Source: an uncultured bacterium
Lineage (GTDB): Bacteria > Abyssobacteria > SURF-5
DNA: 14,155 nucleotides
Assembly (NCBI GenBank): GCA_964510165.1
Contig: CAZEBC010000054.1
Span: forward strand, 6,566 to 20,720
Direction of reading: 5' to 3'
The position numbers and the translations under genes were made by a program. Positions within the stretch are counted from its first letter, which is position 1, and every line of letters begins with the position of its first letter. Below are positions 1,353-12,382 of this stretch, piece by piece. The notes beneath the pieces were generated by a model. It did not search any database, was not told where the DNA came from, and saw only the letters and a list, made by a program, of their open reading frames with translations.

Positions 1353-2195
1353 TTAGAAGCGCAACTCGCGCAGACGACGCACACGCTCCTGAATTGGCGG
1401 GTGAGTGCTTAGTAGGTTCCAGACGCTCTTGCCGCGAATCGGGTTCACTATGAACAGGTGCGCCGACGCGGGATTGGCCTGCAACGGCCTCCTCTGGGCC
1501 GCCATCTCCAGTTTCTCAAGAGCGCTCGCAAGACCGTATGGGCTGCCGGCTATCCGGGCGCCGGAACTGTCGGCGCCGTATTCGCGCGTGCGCGAAACCG
1601 CAAGCTGTATAAGCATGGCGGCAATAGGTGCGACGATCGCTGCCGCCAACAGTCCGATGGCGCCGCCGTTATCCCGGTCGTCCCTGCCGCCACCGCCGAA
1701 TATGGCCGCCCAGCGCGCCATGAAGGCGAGCATTGAGATCGCGCCCGCAAGCGTGGCCGCGATCGAGCCTACCAGCATGTCCCGGTTCCGCACGTGCGCA
1801 AGCTCATGAGCAAGCACGCCCCGGAGTTCTTCCTCGCTCAGCAGGCTCATGATACCCTCCGTCACCGCAACGACGGCGTTCTGCGGATTGCGGCCCGTCG
1901 CGAAGGCGTTGGGCGACTGGCTCGGAATCAGATAAAGCTTGGGCATGGGAAGTCCGGCATTTGTCGCCAGTTCCTTCACCATCGAGTAAAGCCTCGGAGC
2001 TTCGTTCGGCGATATCGGCTGCGCCCGGTACATGGTGAGCACGAGCTTGTCGCTGAACCAGTACGCGCCCATATTCATCACGACGGCGAGCGCAAATGCA
2101 AACACTGCGCCATCCGTGCCGCCAACAGCCTGTCCGACAAGCACGAACAACAGCGTCAGCGCGGTCAGTAATAGCGTGGTACGAAACACATTCAT
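1353..2195 (-). CDS. htpX: Membrane zinc metalloprotease HtpX (M48 family)
   Basis: N-terminal hydrophobic helices, [13 protein letters not shown] (HExxH), SRTREYGAD and STHPP motifs; GGAGG upstream. Confidence 0.96.
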
Positions 2196-2264
2196 TCTTT
2201 ATTCATCCTCCCGTCAAGTCCTGATTAAACGGCGACATTGCATGCCGCCTGTCGCCTATTCATT

Positions 2265-2294
2265 ATTGTAACAGTTTCCCGCGCGCCACATCAA
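2265..2294 (-). promoter_or_regulatory. Putative internal sigma70 promoter (extended -10) for htpX
   Basis: Minus strand TTGATG-18 nt-TACAAT with TG-n directly before the -10 (TGTTACAAT), about 70 nt upstream of the htpX ATG. Confidence 0.55.
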
Positions 2295-2331
2295 CCCTGC
2301 GCCTGGGCGGATCCGCGACTTCGAATTGAGG

Positions 2332-2349
2332 GGCCGTCCGCGGACGGCC
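2332..2349. repeat. Perfect 18-bp palindrome just after the second hsp20 stop (3' stabilising hairpin or pause site)
   Basis: GGCCGTCCGCGGACGGCC is self-complementary; there is no U tract. Confidence 0.55.
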
Positions 2350-2352
2350 GCC

Positions 2353-2706
2353 TCATGCTTCAATCCGAATCTTCTTGGGCAGCACTTCTTTCTTCTTGGG
2401 AATCGTAAGCGTGAGAATTCCCCGCTCGACGGTCGCACTGATACCCGAGGGGTCAAGGTCTTCGCTCAGGACAAACGCTCTCCGGTAATCTCCCCCGGAG
2501 CTTTCTCCATAAATCAACTTCATGCTCGAGTCAACCGGCTTGCGTTTCCCGATCATCGTGAGTTCATCACCGTCAACGGTTACGTCGAACTCGCCCTTCT
2601 CAACCCCCGGCATCTCGGCGCGAAGTGTGACCGAATCCTTTCCCTCTTTGATATCAACGAAAGGAACCCTGTACTGCTCTTTTGGTTTCTGCTCTGTATG
2701 TGCCAT
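2353..2706 (-). CDS. Small heat shock protein (Hsp20/alpha-crystallin), short N-terminal arm, 117 aa
   Basis: PFVDIKE..LRAEMPGV..YRRAFVL..ISATVERGILTLTIPK and a C-terminal IxI (KKIRI). Start moved from 2784 to ATG 2706, which has GGAGAAGAGGG upstream; the longer extension runs through a hairpin. Confidence 0.92.
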   Translation of the reverse strand: MAHTEQKPKEQYRVPFVDIKEGKDSVTLRAEMPGVEKGEFDVTVDGDELTMIGKRKPVDSSMKLIYGESSGGDYRRAFVLSEDLDPSGISATVERGILTLTIPKKKEVLPKKIRIEA

Positions 2707-2753
2707 TGTCCCTCTTCTCCTTGCTTTCGCGGAAATCTTGTTGGCGGTTGCCG

Positions 2754-2787
2754 GCAGTGGGGCAGGCATGGGGGCCTGCCCCACTGC
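2754..2787. repeat. REP-like 14-bp hairpin between the two hsp20 genes
   Basis: GCAGTGGGGCAGGC-atgggg-GCCTGCCCCACTGC. The minus strand GTGGGGCAGGCCCCCATGCCTGCCC resembles GTAG-type REPs. Confidence 0.6.
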
Positions 2788-2796
2788 ATTGGCTCC

Positions 2797-2828
2797 AATC
2801 GGGACGCAGTTAGCCGCAAGAGGAGCCG
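2797..2828 (-). repeat. Downstream arm of the long-range inverted repeat flanking hsp20 (pairs with 3364-3396)
   Basis: GCCGCAAGAGGAGCCG (2813-2828) is the exact reverse complement of CGGCTCCTCTTGCGGC (3364-3379); pairing extends to 2797 with G-U pairs. Confidence 0.85.
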
Positions 2829-2835
2829 GCTCGTG

Positions 2836-3303
2836 TTAGTTCACGCTGATTTTTATCTGTTTGGGCTTGGCCTCTTCCTTCTTGGGCAGCTCGATCTCGA
2901 GCACGCCGTTCTTGAAGGAAGCCTTCACCTTGTCGACAGCTACCGCAGTCGGCAGGGGCATCGAGCGTTGGAACGCGCCATACGCTCTCTCGATCCTGTG
3001 GTAGTTCTCTTCCTTCTTCTCTTCTTCCTTTTTCTTCTCACCCTTGATGGTGAGGGTATTGTCCAGAACGCTCACCTCGATGTCCTTTTCCGTCATGCCG
3101 GGCAATTCGGCCTTGACGACGACCTTGTTCTCGTCCTCATACATATCTACCGCAGGCGCCCACGCTCCTTCGAGCAGGCCCGCGCGTTCGAACGGCCTGC
3201 GTCCCAGCGTGAAGTCGAACAACCGGTTAATCTCGTCCTGGATGCTCAGCATGTCCCTGAAGGGATCGATCTCGGTCCTTGGTCTCCATCTGATCAGCGC
3301 CAT
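2836..3303 (-). CDS. Small heat shock protein (Hsp20/alpha-crystallin), 155 aa
   Basis: DPFRDM..INRLFD, WAPAVDMYE, KAELPG, ERAYGAFQRS, ASFKNGVLEIELPK and C-terminal IKI; strong SD AAGGAGGT. Confidence 0.96.
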   Translation of the reverse strand: MALIRWRPRTEIDPFRDMLSIQDEINRLFDFTLGRRPFERAGLLEGAWAPAVDMYEDENKVVVKAELPGMTEKDIEVSVLDNTLTIKGEKKKEEEKKEENYHRIERAYGAFQRSMPLPTAVAVDKVKASFKNGVLEIELPKKEEAKPKQIKISVN

Positions 3304-3363
3304 AGTTCATACCTCCTTTTTTTCGTTGAATATTCGGGAAGAGCGAATCAAGTGCCCATCTAA

Positions 3364-3396
3364 CGGCTCCTCTTGCGGCCAAGAAAGCGCCCAATC
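3364..3396 (-). repeat. Upstream arm of the long-range inverted repeat flanking hsp20 (pairs with 2797-2828)
   Basis: Minus strand GATTGGGCGC-tttc-TTGGCCGCAAGAGGAGCCG, located in the dnaK-hsp20 intergenic region. Confidence 0.85.
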
Positions 3397-3410
3397 CGCT
3401 GCCCCGATAC

Positions 3411-5339
3411 TCATTTCTTCTCCTCGTCAACGACCTCGTAATCGGCGTCAATCACGTCTTCTTCCTTGCCGGCGCCTCGTTCCCGACGAGGCTCACCCTC
3501 TGGACCGCGATATGCGCCTCCGCGAGGCCCGGCCTGCGCGCCCGCCTGCTGGTACATCTGCGTCGAGACCTCTTGCCAAGTCTGGCTCAGAGCGTCTGTC
3601 GCCGACTTGATCTCGCCAACCTCGCCCGCTTTTACGGCTGCGTTGACGCGCCCGACGGCAGCCTCAAGCCTGCTTTTCTGGTCGGCGGCCAGTTTGTCTC
3701 CAAACTCCTTTATGTTTTTCTCAGTCTCGTACGCCATGGATTCGGCCCGATTGATGGCGTCGGCCTTCTCACGCTTGACACGGTCCTCCCCGGCATGGGC
3801 TTGCGCCTCTTTCACCATCCGGTCTATCTCGTCCTTGCTTAATCCGCTGGAGGCCTCGATCCGGATTTTCTGCTCTTTTGCTGTGGCGAGGTCCTTAGCC
3901 GACACATGAAGTATTCCGTTCGCATCGATGTCAAAGGCGACCTCGATCTGCGGAATCCCTCGCGGCGCCGGCGGTATGCCGGTCAAGTGAAACCGTCCAA
4001 TGGTCTTGTTATCGTACGCCATCTCCCGTTCGCCCTGCAGCACATGTATCTCCACGCTGGTCTGGCCGTCCTCGGCGGTCGTGAATATCTCGCTCTTGCG
4101 AGTCGGTATCGTGGTGTTGCGCTCGATCAGCTTCGTGAACACCCCGCCCTTGGTCTCGATGCCGAGCGACAGAGGCGTCACGTCGAGCAACAGCACGTCG
4201 CGAACCTCGCCGCCAAGCACGCCCGCCTGGATGGCCGCTCCGACCGCGACGACCTCGTCGGGGTTGACGCCCTTATGCGGCTCCTTGTTGAAGATTCCTC
4301 GCACAAGGTCCTGCACTTTCGGCATGCGAGTCTGACCGCCAACGAGGATAACCTCGTCGATCTGGCCCGGTTTCAGGCCGGCGTCCTCAAGGGCCCTCAT
4401 GACCGGTCCTCGGCAGCGCTCGATAAGGTCGTCAACCAATTGCTCGAGCTTCGAGCGCGTCAGCGTGATGTTCAGATGCTTCGGACCCGAGGCGTCCGCC
4501 GTTATGAACGGCAAATTGATGTCGGTGGTCTGTGAAGTCGAGAGTTCGCATTTCGCCTTCTCGGCGGCCTCTTTCAGCCGTTGCAGCGCCATCCGGTCCT
4601 GTCGCAAGTCAATTCCCTGTTCCTTCTTGAAATCATCGGCCAGCCAGTCGATGACGCGCTGATCGAAATCATCGCCGCCCAGGTGAGTATCCCCGTTGGT
4701 GGACAACACTTCAAATACTCCCTCGCCAAGCTGGAGTATCGATATATCGAATGTGCCGCCGCCAAGGTCAAACACGGCAATCTTTTCGTCTTTTTTCTTT
4801 TCCAACCCGTACGCGAGCGACGCCGCGGTAGGCTCGTTGATGATCCTCAGCACTTCGAGCCCGGCAATCTTGCCGGCGTCTTTGGTCGCCTGTCGCTGGG
4901 AATCGTTAAAATACGCCGGAACCGTGATCACCGCCTGCGTTACTTTCTGTCCAAGGTAGTCTTCGGCGCTCTGCTTCATTTTCTGCAGGATCATCGCCGA
5001 AATCTCCGGCGGCCGGTATGTCTTTCCGCCAGCCACCACCTGGCAATCTCCATTCGGCCCTTCGGTCACTTTGTAGGGTACCAGCTTGATCTCGCTCTGG
5101 ACTTCATGAAACTTCCGCCCCATGAATCGCTTGATCGAAAAAACCGTATTCTCCGGATTTGTGATCGCCTGTCGTTTGGCGACCGTCCCTACCAGGCGTT
5201 CTCCTCCTTTGGTGAATGCGACAACCGAAGGAGTAGTGCGCCCCCCCTCTGCGTTCGGTATCACGACGGCTTCGCCACCCTCAAGCACCGCAACGCACGA
5301 GTTGGTAGTACCCAAGTCTATCCCTATTACCTTTGCCAT
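3411..5339 (-). CDS. dnaK: Chaperone DnaK (Hsp70)
   Basis: [36 protein letters not shown] linker and C-terminal DADYEVV; SD GGAGGAG. Confidence 0.99.
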
Positions 5340-5402
5340 TGCTCTGGTCTCCTCCCGTTCAGGACTCTTTCACCTGGTTCTCATAAGACCATTGCTCTGA
5401 AA

Positions 5403-5419
5403 AGCAAGCGCAGTGCCAA
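5403..5419 (-). promoter_or_regulatory. Sigma54 (RpoN) -24/-12 promoter of the dnaK operon
   Basis: Minus strand TTGGCAC-TGCGC-TTGCT matches YTGGCAC-N5-TTGCW with exact GG-N10-GC spacing, about 65 nt upstream of the dnaK ATG. Confidence 0.8.
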
Positions 5420-10094: not shown

Positions 10095-10128
10095 ACCCTC
10101 TCCCTTAGGGAGAGGGTTGGGTGAGGGG
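10095..10128 (-). repeat. boxC-like extragenic repeat (CCCCTCACCC..CCCTCTCCC..GGGAGAGGG), possibly acting as the 3' hairpin of the bio operon
   Basis: ACCCTCTCCC-tta-GGGAGAGGGT stem followed by the tail TGGGTGAGGGG, 20 nt after the bioA stop. Confidence 0.7.
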
Positions 10129-10294
10129 CAAACACGAAACGCGCAATAACCCCACAAAATGCTCACTCTGCACGTTTTCTGTATATCCCGCCGGGCCGAG
10201 CACCCGATTGGCAAATATCGAGGCAGCCGCCGCAAGTCATTACGTTCATGCCGGTTATGAGAAAACCGACGCAATTCGCAAGTTCGCTCGGACG

Positions 10295-10310
10295 CTGGCA
10301 CAAATCTTGC
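10295..10310 (+). promoter_or_regulatory. Sigma54 -24/-12 promoter of the diguanylate cyclase
   Basis: CTGGCAC-AAATC-TTGC with GG-N10-GC spacing, followed by SD GGAGGTGA (10331-10338) and an in-frame ATG at 10349. Confidence 0.68.
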
Positions 10311-10348
10311 CCCTCAACCCGCCACATGGGGGAGGTGATAGTTCCCAT

Positions 10349-12382
10349 ATGCCAAAGGGCACGGTGCGTGCTTCACTCAGAGCGCAGAGACTGCACTCAG
10401 AAGATAACCCGGAAATGCAAGACAGCATGGCAATCGCTAAGGATGTACGTACCCTCATAGAAGAAACCGTTATCTCCCTGCCCACCATTCCCAGCGTGTT
10501 TCTGACGGTACTCGACAAAGTGGCCAGGGACAAATCTTCGGCGGAGGACGTCGCGCGCATCATCGAGCGCGACCAATCGCTCACCTCGAAAGTGCTCACG
10601 GTCGTCAATTCGTCCGCCTACGGCTTTCAAAACAAGATATCCACGGTCCCCCGCGCGGTCGCTTTGCTCGGGTTTGACCTCATTCGAAATCTGGCGCTGA
10701 GCGTCTCCGTATTCGACGACTTTCTGAAGCGCCAGGAGATCGCGTGCTTCGACAAGACCAAGTTCTGGGAACACTGCCTTGTGTGCGCCGCCGTTGCCCG
10801 GGAAATCGCCCAGCAATTGTACCTGCCGAATCCGGACGAAATCTACGTCGCCGGACTCCTTCATGATATCGGCAAGGTTGCCCTCGACAAGGTCTCGCGA
10901 GAAAACTACAGCGAAATCATAGCCCATTCCTCGATGAGCAGGAACTGGCTTGCCGTCGAGCAAACACGCCTCGGAGTGAATCACGCCGAGGTCGGCGGCA
11001 TCCTCGCCCGCAAATGGTCGCTGCCCGACAATATCGGCGCCGCAATCACCCATCATCATGAAATGCCTAAAAGCGGACTGACAGAGGAGCAGGCGCACAT
11101 GACCGCCGCCGTAAGCGTAGCCGATTTCATTTGCTGGACTCACGGCTTCGGTTCAGTATATGTCCTGCATCCGCCGCACCTGTGCGAACGAGTCAGCGAC
11201 CTGGTGGAAATAGACAACCTCGATATCGGGAAGATATATGACGCGATGGACCGTCAGATCATGAGCACAGCCAAGCTCTTCCACCTCTCGATCCCCGATA
11301 CGCGCACGTTCCGGGAAGCTCTCATGAGGGCGAACTCCGAACTCGGCCACCTGAATTCGCTCTACCAGGAAGCCAGAACTCAACTCGACCGGCAAGTGAG
11401 GCAACTCTCCTGCCTCAACCGCGCCATTTACCAGATTCGGCAGGACCTGGATGCGAAGGCCACCGTGAAGGCCCTTCTCCGTGCGATCCGGGATGAGTTT
11501 GGCTTTGCAAGAACTCTGTTCTTCAAGCTGAATGAGAGCGGCGAACGGCTTGAGCTTACGGATTCCCTGACCGAACCCTTGAAGGAATCTTATGAAGCCG
11601 CCGGTTTCCAGGAAAGCAGGCTTCTCGCCCGCTCCCTCAAGGAAAGACGAATTGCGAAATTCGAGAACGCCGGCGAGTGGAAGGGCGACCCTTTGTTCGT
11701 CAGCCTCATGACCAACGAGATATTCGTCATTCCAATTCCCTCGAAGCGAGGTCTTGTCGGTGTGGTCACCGCCGACAACGGCGACAGCCGCGAGGCCGCC
11801 GATTCTACATCAATGGATTCACTCAATATCCTCGCCCAGGAGGCGGGGCTTGCCATCGAAAACGCGCTTCTGTTCGAGAAGACGAGAGAACTCGCCATCA
11901 AGGACGACCTGACTCAGTTGTACAACCGCCGCCATATTCTCCAGGCTCTGGAAACCGAGATGCAGCGCTCCCAGCGCTACGATCGCCCGCTCTCCATCGC
12001 CATGCTCGATATCGACCATTTCAAGAAGATCAACGACGCTTTCGGACATCGAACCGGCGACGACGTGCTCAGGTCAATCGCGCGCTACTTGAAAGGCTCA
12101 TCACGAGTCACCGACATGGTGGGCAGATACGGCGGCGAGGAATTCCTCGTGATATTACCCGAGACGAACGCCGAAGGAGCAATAGGGTATTCCGAACGTG
12201 TGCGGCGCGCCGTCGAGGAGTTCGGTAAGACGCAGTTGAGCGAATTCGCGCCCAACCTCACGATCAGCGGCGGAGTTTCCGCCTTCGACCCATCTGGAGA
12301 CACCCTCGAAACGCTTCTGGACAGGGTTGACCGCGCACTCTATAAAGCCAAGGAAACCCGCAACCGCATAGCAGTGCTGTAA
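10349..12382 (+). CDS. HDOD - coiled coil - GAF - GGDEF diguanylate cyclase
   Basis: HDOD: LPTIP, DQSLTSKVLTVVNS, FWEHC, GLLHDIGK, HAEVG..W.LP. GAF-like end: IPIPSKRGLVGVVTADN..LAIENA. GGDEF: DDLTQLYNRR, DIDHFKKINDAFGH, RVTD I-site, RYGGEEF. The start is uncertain (10349, 10415 or 10427); 10121 lies upstream of the predicted promoter. Confidence 0.93.
   Translation: MPKGTVRASLRAQRLHSEDNPEMQDSMAIAKDVRTLIEETVISLPTIPSVFLTVLDKVARDKSSAEDVARIIERDQSLTSKVLTVVNSSAYGFQNKISTVPRAVALLGFDLIRNLALSVSVFDDFLKRQEIACFDKTKFWEHCLVCAAVAREIAQQLYLPNPDEIYVAGLLHDIGKVALDKVSRENYSEIIAHSSMSRNWLAVEQTRLGVNHAEVGGILARKWSLPDNIGAAITHHHEMPKSGLTEEQAHMTAAVSVADFICWTHGFGSVYVLHPPHLCERVSDLVEIDNLDIGKIYDAMDRQIMSTAKLFHLSIPDTRTFREALMRANSELGHLNSLYQEARTQLDRQVRQLSCLNRAIYQIRQDLDAKATVKALLRAIRDEFGFARTLFFKLNESGERLELTDSLTEPLKESYEAAGFQESRLLARSLKERRIAKFENAGEWKGDPLFVSLMTNEIFVIPIPSKRGLVGVVTADNGDSREAADSTSMDSLNILAQEAGLAIENALLFEKTRELAIKDDLTQLYNRRHILQALETEMQRSQRYDRPLSIAMLDIDHFKKINDAFGHRTGDDVLRSIARYLKGSSRVTDMVGRYGGEEFLVILPETNAEGAIGYSERVRRAVEEFGKTQLSEFAPNLTISGGVSAFDPSGDTLETLLDRVDRALYKAKETRNRIAVL

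Follow-up and report, generated by a model that had tools for sequence, protein, structure and literature searches.

Why should one small heat-shock gene, set inside a dnaK operon, be bracketed by two long segments that are able to pair with each other across its coding region? The question is raised by hsp20 (2836-3303, minus strand), a gene of an uncultured bacterium that lies on contig CAZEBC010000054.1 within a stretch of 14,155 nucleotides (nt), referred to here as the window, whose numbering is used throughout. The gene encodes a 155-aa small heat-shock protein (sHSP) of family PF00011 (E 5e-26); dnaK is the cistron upstream, and a second small heat-shock gene, hsp20b, is the cistron downstream. 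A sequence-only reading of the window had drawn attention to the complementary flanks and proposed that they form an RNA stem around hsp20. The two arms are very probably the strands of a selected long-range RNA helix. Its function, which is assigned with less assurance, is probably that of a post-transcriptional clamp on the hsp20 segment, a selected helix joining the 5' untranslated region (UTR) to its 3' counterpart and setting processing and stability of the segment. That control is exerted on processing or stability rather than on translation is, taken by itself, an evenly balanced proposition.

On the minus strand, from which hsp20 is read, the main helix joins a 5' arm of 19 nt (3364-3382), located in the 107-nt spacer between dnaK and hsp20 and ending 60 nt before the hsp20 start codon, to a CU-rich 3' arm of 19 nt (2810-2828) that begins 8 nt after the stop codon. 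Both arms are intergenic, and the 468-nt coding region lies in the ‘loop’ inside the helix. An inverted-repeat search finds the arms to be 95% complementary and 535 nt apart; they include a 16-mer and its exact complement (2813-2828 and 3364-3379), and the only mismatch of the 19-bp helix is a G-U pair on the transcribed strand. An outer helix of 10 bp, with two G-U pairs and one bulge, is made by a 5' strand at 3387-3396 and a 3' strand at 2797-2807 (bulged U at 2804). It is joined to the main helix via a 4 x 2-nt internal loop, the longer side of which is 3383-3386. Both helices appear in the minimum free energy (MFE) fold of 2740-3420 on the minus strand (-273.8 kcal/mol, z -6.2 against 20 shuffles), and the full-length fold contains 37 pairs between the upstream and downstream flanks, with 35.8 expected by the partition function. 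The two-part stem and the exact 16-mer complement are thereby confirmed as first described. Complementary segments before the start and after the stop of the same cistron, on its coding strand, are the pattern of a 5'/3'-UTR interaction. The outer helix is peculiar to this genome, its relatives being without it, and a close strain known from other sequencing runs has different bases at 2805 and 2808, so that its three outermost pairs are lost there; the 19-bp arms show no close-strain difference among the matches listed.

Flank pairing was scored as an ungapped helix in both the shuffle and the non-cognate tests, since RNAduplex on flanks of 200 x 120 nt and gapped local alignment proved too permissive, the signal being swamped by long loop-rich alignments. 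The score of the window helix was matched by none of 200 shuffles and by none of 302 non-cognate flank pairs. Exact inverted repeats of at least 16 nt with a spacing of 150-3000 nt number only 25 in the 4.17-Mb genome. When 9,492 naive open reading frames (ORFs) of 100-400 aa were ranked by flank complementarity, hsp20 came fourth, and the three ORFs above it are bracketed by inverted copies of a dispersed repeat resembling repetitive extragenic palindromes (REP), unlike the hsp20 arms. The 16-mer is not a high-copy repeat: the assembly holds two exact copies, which are the two arms, and one copy with a single mismatch on contig C38. A REP element or miniature inverted-repeat transposable element (MITE) was rejected on this count. 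The C38 copy was considered as a partner site and set aside, as it has neither a partner nor a heat-shock context.

Several of the longest of the 25 inverted repeats are a dispersed repeat motif or GC palindromes. The REP-like repeat, of the type CCCTCACCCC.ACCCTCTCCC, is found inverted on both sides of several small genes, at G000 C227:3755-4087, C89:4084-4587 and C126:9867-10418 (thioredoxin-, HIT- and CBS-like by eye), and the flank complementarity of the genes so bracketed is higher than that at hsp20. A different arrangement occurs at G000 C86:12629-13836, where three collinear exact inverted-repeat segments of 14-16 nt surround ~1 kb, perhaps an insertion element or a further gene bracketed in this way.

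The window belongs to a Poribacteria-like metagenome-assembled genome (MAG), and the best named match of its hsp20 is from a MAG of Candidatus Poribacteria (74% identity). In that phylum, 8 of the 11 genomes surveyed contributed 11 hsp20 loci. A metagenome scan with the hsp20 alignment yielded 80 loci, all at 59% identity or less, and no close Poribacteria relatives. Arms are present at 6 of the 11 Poribacteria loci: the window, G001, G004, G006 (C28), G005 (C26) and G005 (C3). Relative to the coding region, the end of the 5' arm is 26-70 nt ahead of the start codon, and the 3' arm begins 2-12 nt past the stop. The arms are paired in the full-length MFE fold at all six, with 16-36 pairs expected between the flanks. 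In a fixed register the six helices, of 12-22 bp, comprise 107 positions, of which 92 are Watson-Crick pairs, 11 G-U, 1 A-C and 3 other mismatches. Six positions have changed on both strands, p-5 (UA/AU/GC), p0, p8, p10, p12 and p14, and at p0, p8, p12 and p14 a third locus has the G-U intermediate. The cells are paired in 79.4% of cases in register and in 38-48% when one strand is slid by 1-3 columns. When 5' and 3' arms were swapped among the six loci, the observed total fit was reached in 59 of 20,000 permutations. No helix was found at G002, G003 or G006 (C58), and in G009 a sequence like the 5' arm is kept while the 3' arm has been lost together with hsp20b.

These loci also bear on the tie of the stem to the dnaK polycistron. 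The arm-bearing loci G005 C26 and C3 are not adjacent to dnaK. Of the three hsp20 paralogues of that genome (L009, L016 and L019), the dnaK-adjacent copy has a spacer of 25 nt and is armless, and the stand-alone copies L016 and L019 each have their own arms, which differ from each other. Arms at hsp20 loci away from dnaK indicate that the element belongs to hsp20 messages and not to the dnaK operon as such, and the tie to the operon is not supported.

A broader survey compared cognate with non-cognate flank pairs at 162 sHSP loci from many phyla. Eleven cognate pairs had a rank p<0.01, where 1.6 were expected. Six of them are the Poribacteria loci, and three of the remaining five are from Desulfobacterales. 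A Desulfobacterales set of 23 loci was then assembled from 18 of 151 genomes with an orthologue (E<=1e-40), along with two further loci from the broad survey. A helix is present at 11 of the 23, each with a score reached by at most 3 of 200 shuffles. The layout is that of the Poribacteria: the 5' arm ends 20-54 nt ahead of the start codon, with the 3' arm beginning 5-18 nt past the stop. The complementarity is conserved at hsp20 loci of two phyla. The arm sequences themselves are unlike those of the Poribacteria and unlike one another (CCCGGGGAGGGCA with TGCCCTCCCCGGG, GTTGGAGAGATTGGAAG with CTTCCTGTTTCTCCAAC, AACAGCTCCGGAGAG with TTCTCCGGGGCTGTT). Swapping of partners among the Desulfobacterales loci did not reach the observed fit in any of 20,000 permutations; the co-variation sought in the first description is upheld by the double changes in Poribacteria and by the partner swaps in both clades, and weakly by the column shuffles on the six Poribacteria sequences discussed below. 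None of the 23 loci has dnaK within 1.5 kb. Polarity is constant in both clades, the purine-rich arm being upstream and the CU-rich arm downstream on the coding strand.

Among seven viral sHSP loci, a single one, the phage-borne L221 on a viral contig (ORF 305-766), has a perfect 14-bp flank pair; its 5' arm ends 66 nt ahead of the start codon and its 3' arm begins 16 nt past the stop. In a quick tree of uncertain root, the Poribacteria and Desulfobacterales genes form separate clades with armless genes between them, and at least four gains or losses are forced. A common origin of the two sets of helices was not accepted as settled, the separate clades fitting homology or convergence. Flank helices of 12-14 bp were seen at further single sHSP loci, L041 (an Atribacteria MAG), L061 (a Nitrospirota MAG) and L133 (a metagenome contig), and one of 26 nt with mismatches at L129 (also a metagenome contig). 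L061, L129 and L133 passed the arm criterion. L041 is ranked at p<0.01 in the comparison with non-cognate pairs, although 3' pairing begins only 27 nt past its stop codon; inspection by eye places a near-consensus TTGACA-17-TATAAT promoter a few nt upstream of its 5' arm. The five Omnitrophota loci examined (L025, L026, L032, L035 and L055) did not pass the arm criterion.

How might such a helix act? As envisaged here, it would join the hsp20 leader, which in the window is the dnaK-hsp20 spacer, to the first bases past the stop codon and so loop out the coding region. Both arms would have to reside on one RNA in vivo, and the 3' arm, once transcribed, would displace a local leader hairpin to give a duplex of ~29 bp. 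RNase III, which is specific for double strands, would find a substrate in this duplex when the transcript reads through dnaK, hsp20 and hsp20b, and cutting would release hsp20 from its neighbours. The helix would bury the sequence beside both ends of the cistron in every context, and both 3' exonucleases and 5'-end-dependent nucleases would stall at it, giving the hsp20 segment its own lifetime, with net stabilisation rather than decay as the presumed outcome. A sigma-54-type promoter is recognisable at three loci (L019, L193 and L215); the distance from its -12 element to the beginning of the 5' arm is 29-48 nt, which places the arm within the leader.

The clamp is preferred on several grounds. 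The Shine-Dalgarno (SD) sequence of hsp20, GGAGG at 3312-3316 on the minus strand, is untouched by the helix and unpaired in the local fold. An RNase III gene is present in the genome (PF14622, 142 bits, at G000:C62:9586-9969 in a profile search), and published RNase III duplexes are of a comparable kind. The helix lengths, 19+10 bp here and 12-22 bp in the Poribacteria relatives, are within the 10-36 bp range of those duplexes and fit the near-continuous pairing, over about two helical turns, expected of an RNase III processing stem. A simple scan of the 220 nt downstream found no hairpin-plus-U terminator at any of the 17 arm-bearing loci, so that the helix may itself be the 3' barrier, and no intrinsic terminator was found on the minus strand between 2200 and 5800. 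A long-range terminator, made of the helix and a U-run, was rejected as a U-rich tail follows the 3' arm at few loci only. Finally, a GC-rich helix of 19+10 bp is too stable for a thermometer and would not melt at physiological temperatures; together with the open SD this leaves the temperature dependence suggested by the sequence-only reading unsupported, and nothing was found in favour of its further suggestion that hsp20 RNA is circularised.

Several observations weigh against the clamp. Formal covariation in the six Poribacteria sequences is weak, as their 12-nt core is nearly invariant: after shuffling of columns, the paired fraction is 75.1% against the observed 79.4% (reached by 22 of 500 shuffles), pairs changed on both sides number 4.5 against six (reached by 104 of 500), and 50 of 500 attain the covariation score. 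The helix is absent at 5 of 11 Poribacteria and 12 of 23 Desulfobacterales loci and is hence dispensable. Some orthologous helices are only 9-15 bp, which is short for RNase III. The dnaK-hsp20 spacer folds by itself (3304-3413, minus strand) into a long imperfect hairpin, with an energy of -38.3 kcal/mol and a z of -2.8, which ties up the 5' arm and, being stable, must be displaced by the 3' arm; in the model it is possibly a metastable structure that precedes transcription of the 3' arm. Between the 5' arm and the SD there is a weak sigma-54-like match (3343-3357, minus strand) with two mismatches, in which the GG and GC are kept. Should this match be a genuine promoter, messages for hsp20 alone would be without the 5' arm in the window, leaving the helix confined to read-through RNA. 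The original argument that G-U pairs favour RNA is sound for the window locus, where all three substitutions are G-U on the transcribed strand. For the 17 arm-bearing loci it is suggestive: beside Watson-Crick seeds there are 11 G-U and 7 A-C pairs, and among those beyond which pairing goes on the numbers are 4 and 0; from sequence this asymmetry points to RNA and is not decisive.

A block similar to the 3343-3357 match is also found in G001. A scan for sigma-70-type promoters upstream of the 5' arms gave no consistent site.

Arrangements of this kind are known from other systems. The long-range stems of rRNA operons bracket a functional unit and release it from the polycistronic precursor (PMC6582327), and RNase III targets in Bacillus subtilis mRNA are intramolecular duplexes of 10-36 bp whose strands are up to 505 nt apart (bioRxiv 10.1101/2023.03.12.532304). 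The hsp20 helix resembles the mRNA duplexes in that its strands are hundreds of nt apart, and the rRNA stems in that it brackets a unit; it differs in that the enclosed unit is a protein-coding cistron, that cleavage is a prediction and that orthologous helices can be short. A close parallel is the B. subtilis hbs message, in which 14-bp pairing of the 5' UTR with the 3' UTR modulates RNase cleavage (Braun, Durand and Condon 2017, PMC5737220). There too, a leader-3' UTR duplex, of ~14 bp, encloses a small, highly expressed ORF and affects ribonuclease access without acting on the SD directly. However, hbs is, in that account, one described case from one species, studied with RNase Y and J1, whereas the helix of 19+10 bp considered here is kept across genera, recurs in a second phylum with other sequences and has, in the window, its 5' arm in the intercistronic spacer of a polycistron.

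Three further messages share some features with hsp20. In icaR of Staphylococcus aureus (PMC3868564), as in yabJ-spoVG (bioRxiv 10.64898/2026.09.18.752551), an RNase III substrate arises when a 3' element rich in C and U pairs with purine-rich 5' sequence on one and the same transcript. In icaR it is the SD that is paired, and initiation is blocked, whereas at hsp20 the SD lies beyond the helix. In yabJ-spoVG the cis duplex provides sub-operonic control of one gene of a polycistron, but that duplex links the 5' UTR to an intercistronic region, and the regulated cistron is not enclosed on both sides. In hok of plasmid R1 (PMC9841398), tac/fbi pairing of the 5' and 3' ends closes the full-length mRNA and makes it stable. 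Before the 3' partner is made, hok forms a metastable 5' hairpin, and the hsp20 leader alone likewise folds locally. Closure of hok silences it through an SD-sequestering box and is reversed by 3' trimming, whereas no such box was seen here.

Another kind of post-transcriptional structure attached to small heat-shock genes is that of the RNA thermometers (ROSE, fourU and cyanobacterial hsp17; PMC4152365, PMC3669281). These are described as local leader hairpins that occlude the SD and are melted by heat, unlike the open SD and far too stable helix at hsp20. A thermometer of the ROSE or fourU type was rejected for the open SD and the lack of an Rfam match: Rfam gave none near the arms at E<=5 and none in nine related loci at E<=0.1. 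The opinion of the sequence-only reading that this is not a described system therefore needs qualification. The kind of structure is known from hbs, icaR, hok and the RNase III duplexes; a cistron-enclosing helix specific to sHSP genes was not found described in the literature, in which subscription journals were thinly covered.

Could the helix act on translation instead? A switch of the icaR or hok type, in which the CU-rich 3' arm, resembling an anti-SD, pairs with either the 5' arm or the true SD and thereby gates initiation, and in which the helix receives feedback from the terminating ribosome, 2-18 nt away from the 3' arm, is unlikely but has evidence to recommend it. Aside from the precedents (in icaR the 3'-UTR motif UCCCCUG is reported to pair with the SD, and in hok there is tac/fbi), 3' arms are CU-rich and 5' arms SD-like in all 17 loci, the 3' arm is always within 2-18 nt of the stop codon, and the Desulfobacterales helices can reach to 20-28 nt from the start codon, stopping just a few bases short of the SD. 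The distances elsewhere are less favourable, with the helix ending 60 nt from the start codon in the window and 26-70 nt across Poribacteria. The true SD, besides being unpaired in the local fold, could pair with the 3' arm over only ~5 bp, whereas the 5' arm does so over 19 bp. Straightforward icaR-type repression by a 3'-UTR anti-SD was rejected on this distance and the unpaired SD. The SD-like end of the 5' arm is followed, at a distance of 7 nt, by a three-codon mini-ORF (ATG GGC ACT TGA, 3348-3359, minus strand). An upstream ORF started by this SD-like end was rejected, as the mini-ORF is not conserved in relatives, and this lack of conservation also counts against the switch.

Distinctly unlikely, but related in its appeal to the ribosome, is a closed-loop device of sHSP messages, in which the helix would hold the stop codon, 2-18 nt from it, near the ribosome-binding region, a few to some tens of nt from its other strand, so that terminating ribosomes start again, the loop being sealed when translation stops. 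The helix would then have arisen, or been kept, repeatedly, including in Poribacteria and Desulfobacterales, and would represent a widespread, so far undescribed cistron-enclosing class tied to one gene family.

The recurrence of the helix specifically at sHSP genes of unrelated lineages would also be expected of a platform for autoregulation, to which the sHSP itself or another protein binds when the helix is closed, repressing or degrading its own message in the manner of Escherichia coli IbpA, which is reported to repress itself via its 5' UTR. This is very unlikely. The arm sequences differ between clades, the pairing alone being kept, so that any recognition must be by shape, and IbpA relies, according to the same reports, on a local leader structure and not on a 5'-3' helix.

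A feature of the DNA is scarcely credible, whether as a split integron-type cassette site, the terminal inverted repeats of a mobile cassette or the recombinase sites of an invertible segment. Cassette boundaries do look like inverted repeats around one small gene, and the arms move along with the hsp20 paralogues in G005. Integron core sites are GTTRRRY and RYYYAAC, and the outer ends of the helix (TTGGCC ... GGCTAA) are loosely like them but off by 1-2 positions per side. Beyond the 3' arm there is no partner (attC) site, and the supposed cassette boundary is spanned by the outer 10-bp helix. Between dnaK and hsp20b, hsp20 has the same place and orientation in seven genomes of seven genera. 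An integron gene cassette with its attC was rejected for the imperfect core sites, the missing downstream partner and this chromosomal synteny. Furthermore, the arms are confined to a single locus in the genome, their polarity relative to transcription is constant, and the G-U intermediates are on the coding strand. DNA contigs of two runs, which drop rare variants, show no joint at the arms. Chance complementarity of two GC-rich spacers has a negligible probability, for although a lenient search gives 36 inverted pairs in the 14-kb window, neither the shuffles nor the non-cognate pairs reached the observed score, and the presence of the same arms in other genera refutes it.

Pairing between the 5' and 3' ends of bacterial messages is known from a few single-species cases (hbs, icaR, hok), and its conservation has rarely been shown. 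Here, genes of one family, that of the sHSP, are enclosed by a helix of this kind in two phyla that are far apart, and also on a viral contig, with other sequences but the same geometry. Inside a dnaK operon, such a helix could give one cistron a separate fate. If the clamp is real, it would constitute a family-wide post-transcriptional layer of the heat-shock response that is invisible to searches for local motifs with Rfam-type models. It would also offer a natural and compact system in which to study the effects of 5'-3' closure on decay, RNase III processing and ribosome recycling.

The neighbourhood of hsp20 on the minus strand consists of dnaK (3411-5339; HSP70, E 1e-269), hsp20b (2353-2706; 117 aa) and an M48 peptidase gene (1353-2195). 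A hairpin of 14 bp without mismatch, closed by a 6-nt loop and lacking a U-run (2754-2787, minus strand), lies 9 nt downstream of the outer 3' strand. It is present in a single copy in the genome, and so is not a REP element, and it is not found in G001; judged by its sequence, it is a probable 3' stabiliser or terminator of the hsp20 segment.

Two small runs labelled as metatranscriptomes, but rated as probably DNA, gave contig pieces on 2163-5373, with the last contig ending at 5373 in both; the remainder of the window is uncovered in them, and two DNA runs cover all 30 bins. Contig X3 record 11 (2771-3663) covers both arms and X5 record 24 (2841-3569) bridges dnaK and hsp20. As contigs show neither the ends nor the levels of transcripts, their depths, their ends and the uncovered parts were not used as evidence.

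A perfect sigma-54-type promoter match, TGGCAC-N5-TTGC, is located at 5404-5418 on the minus strand, 65 nt upstream of dnaK, and is likely, from its sequence and position, to be the start of a transcript carrying both arms. The genome encodes two sigma-54 homologues (on C50 and C20), and the dnaK heat-shock operon may be driven by sigma-54. The window contains two such matches where 0.09 are expected, the other being at 10296-10310 on the plus strand, within a 753-aa ORF (10121-12382).

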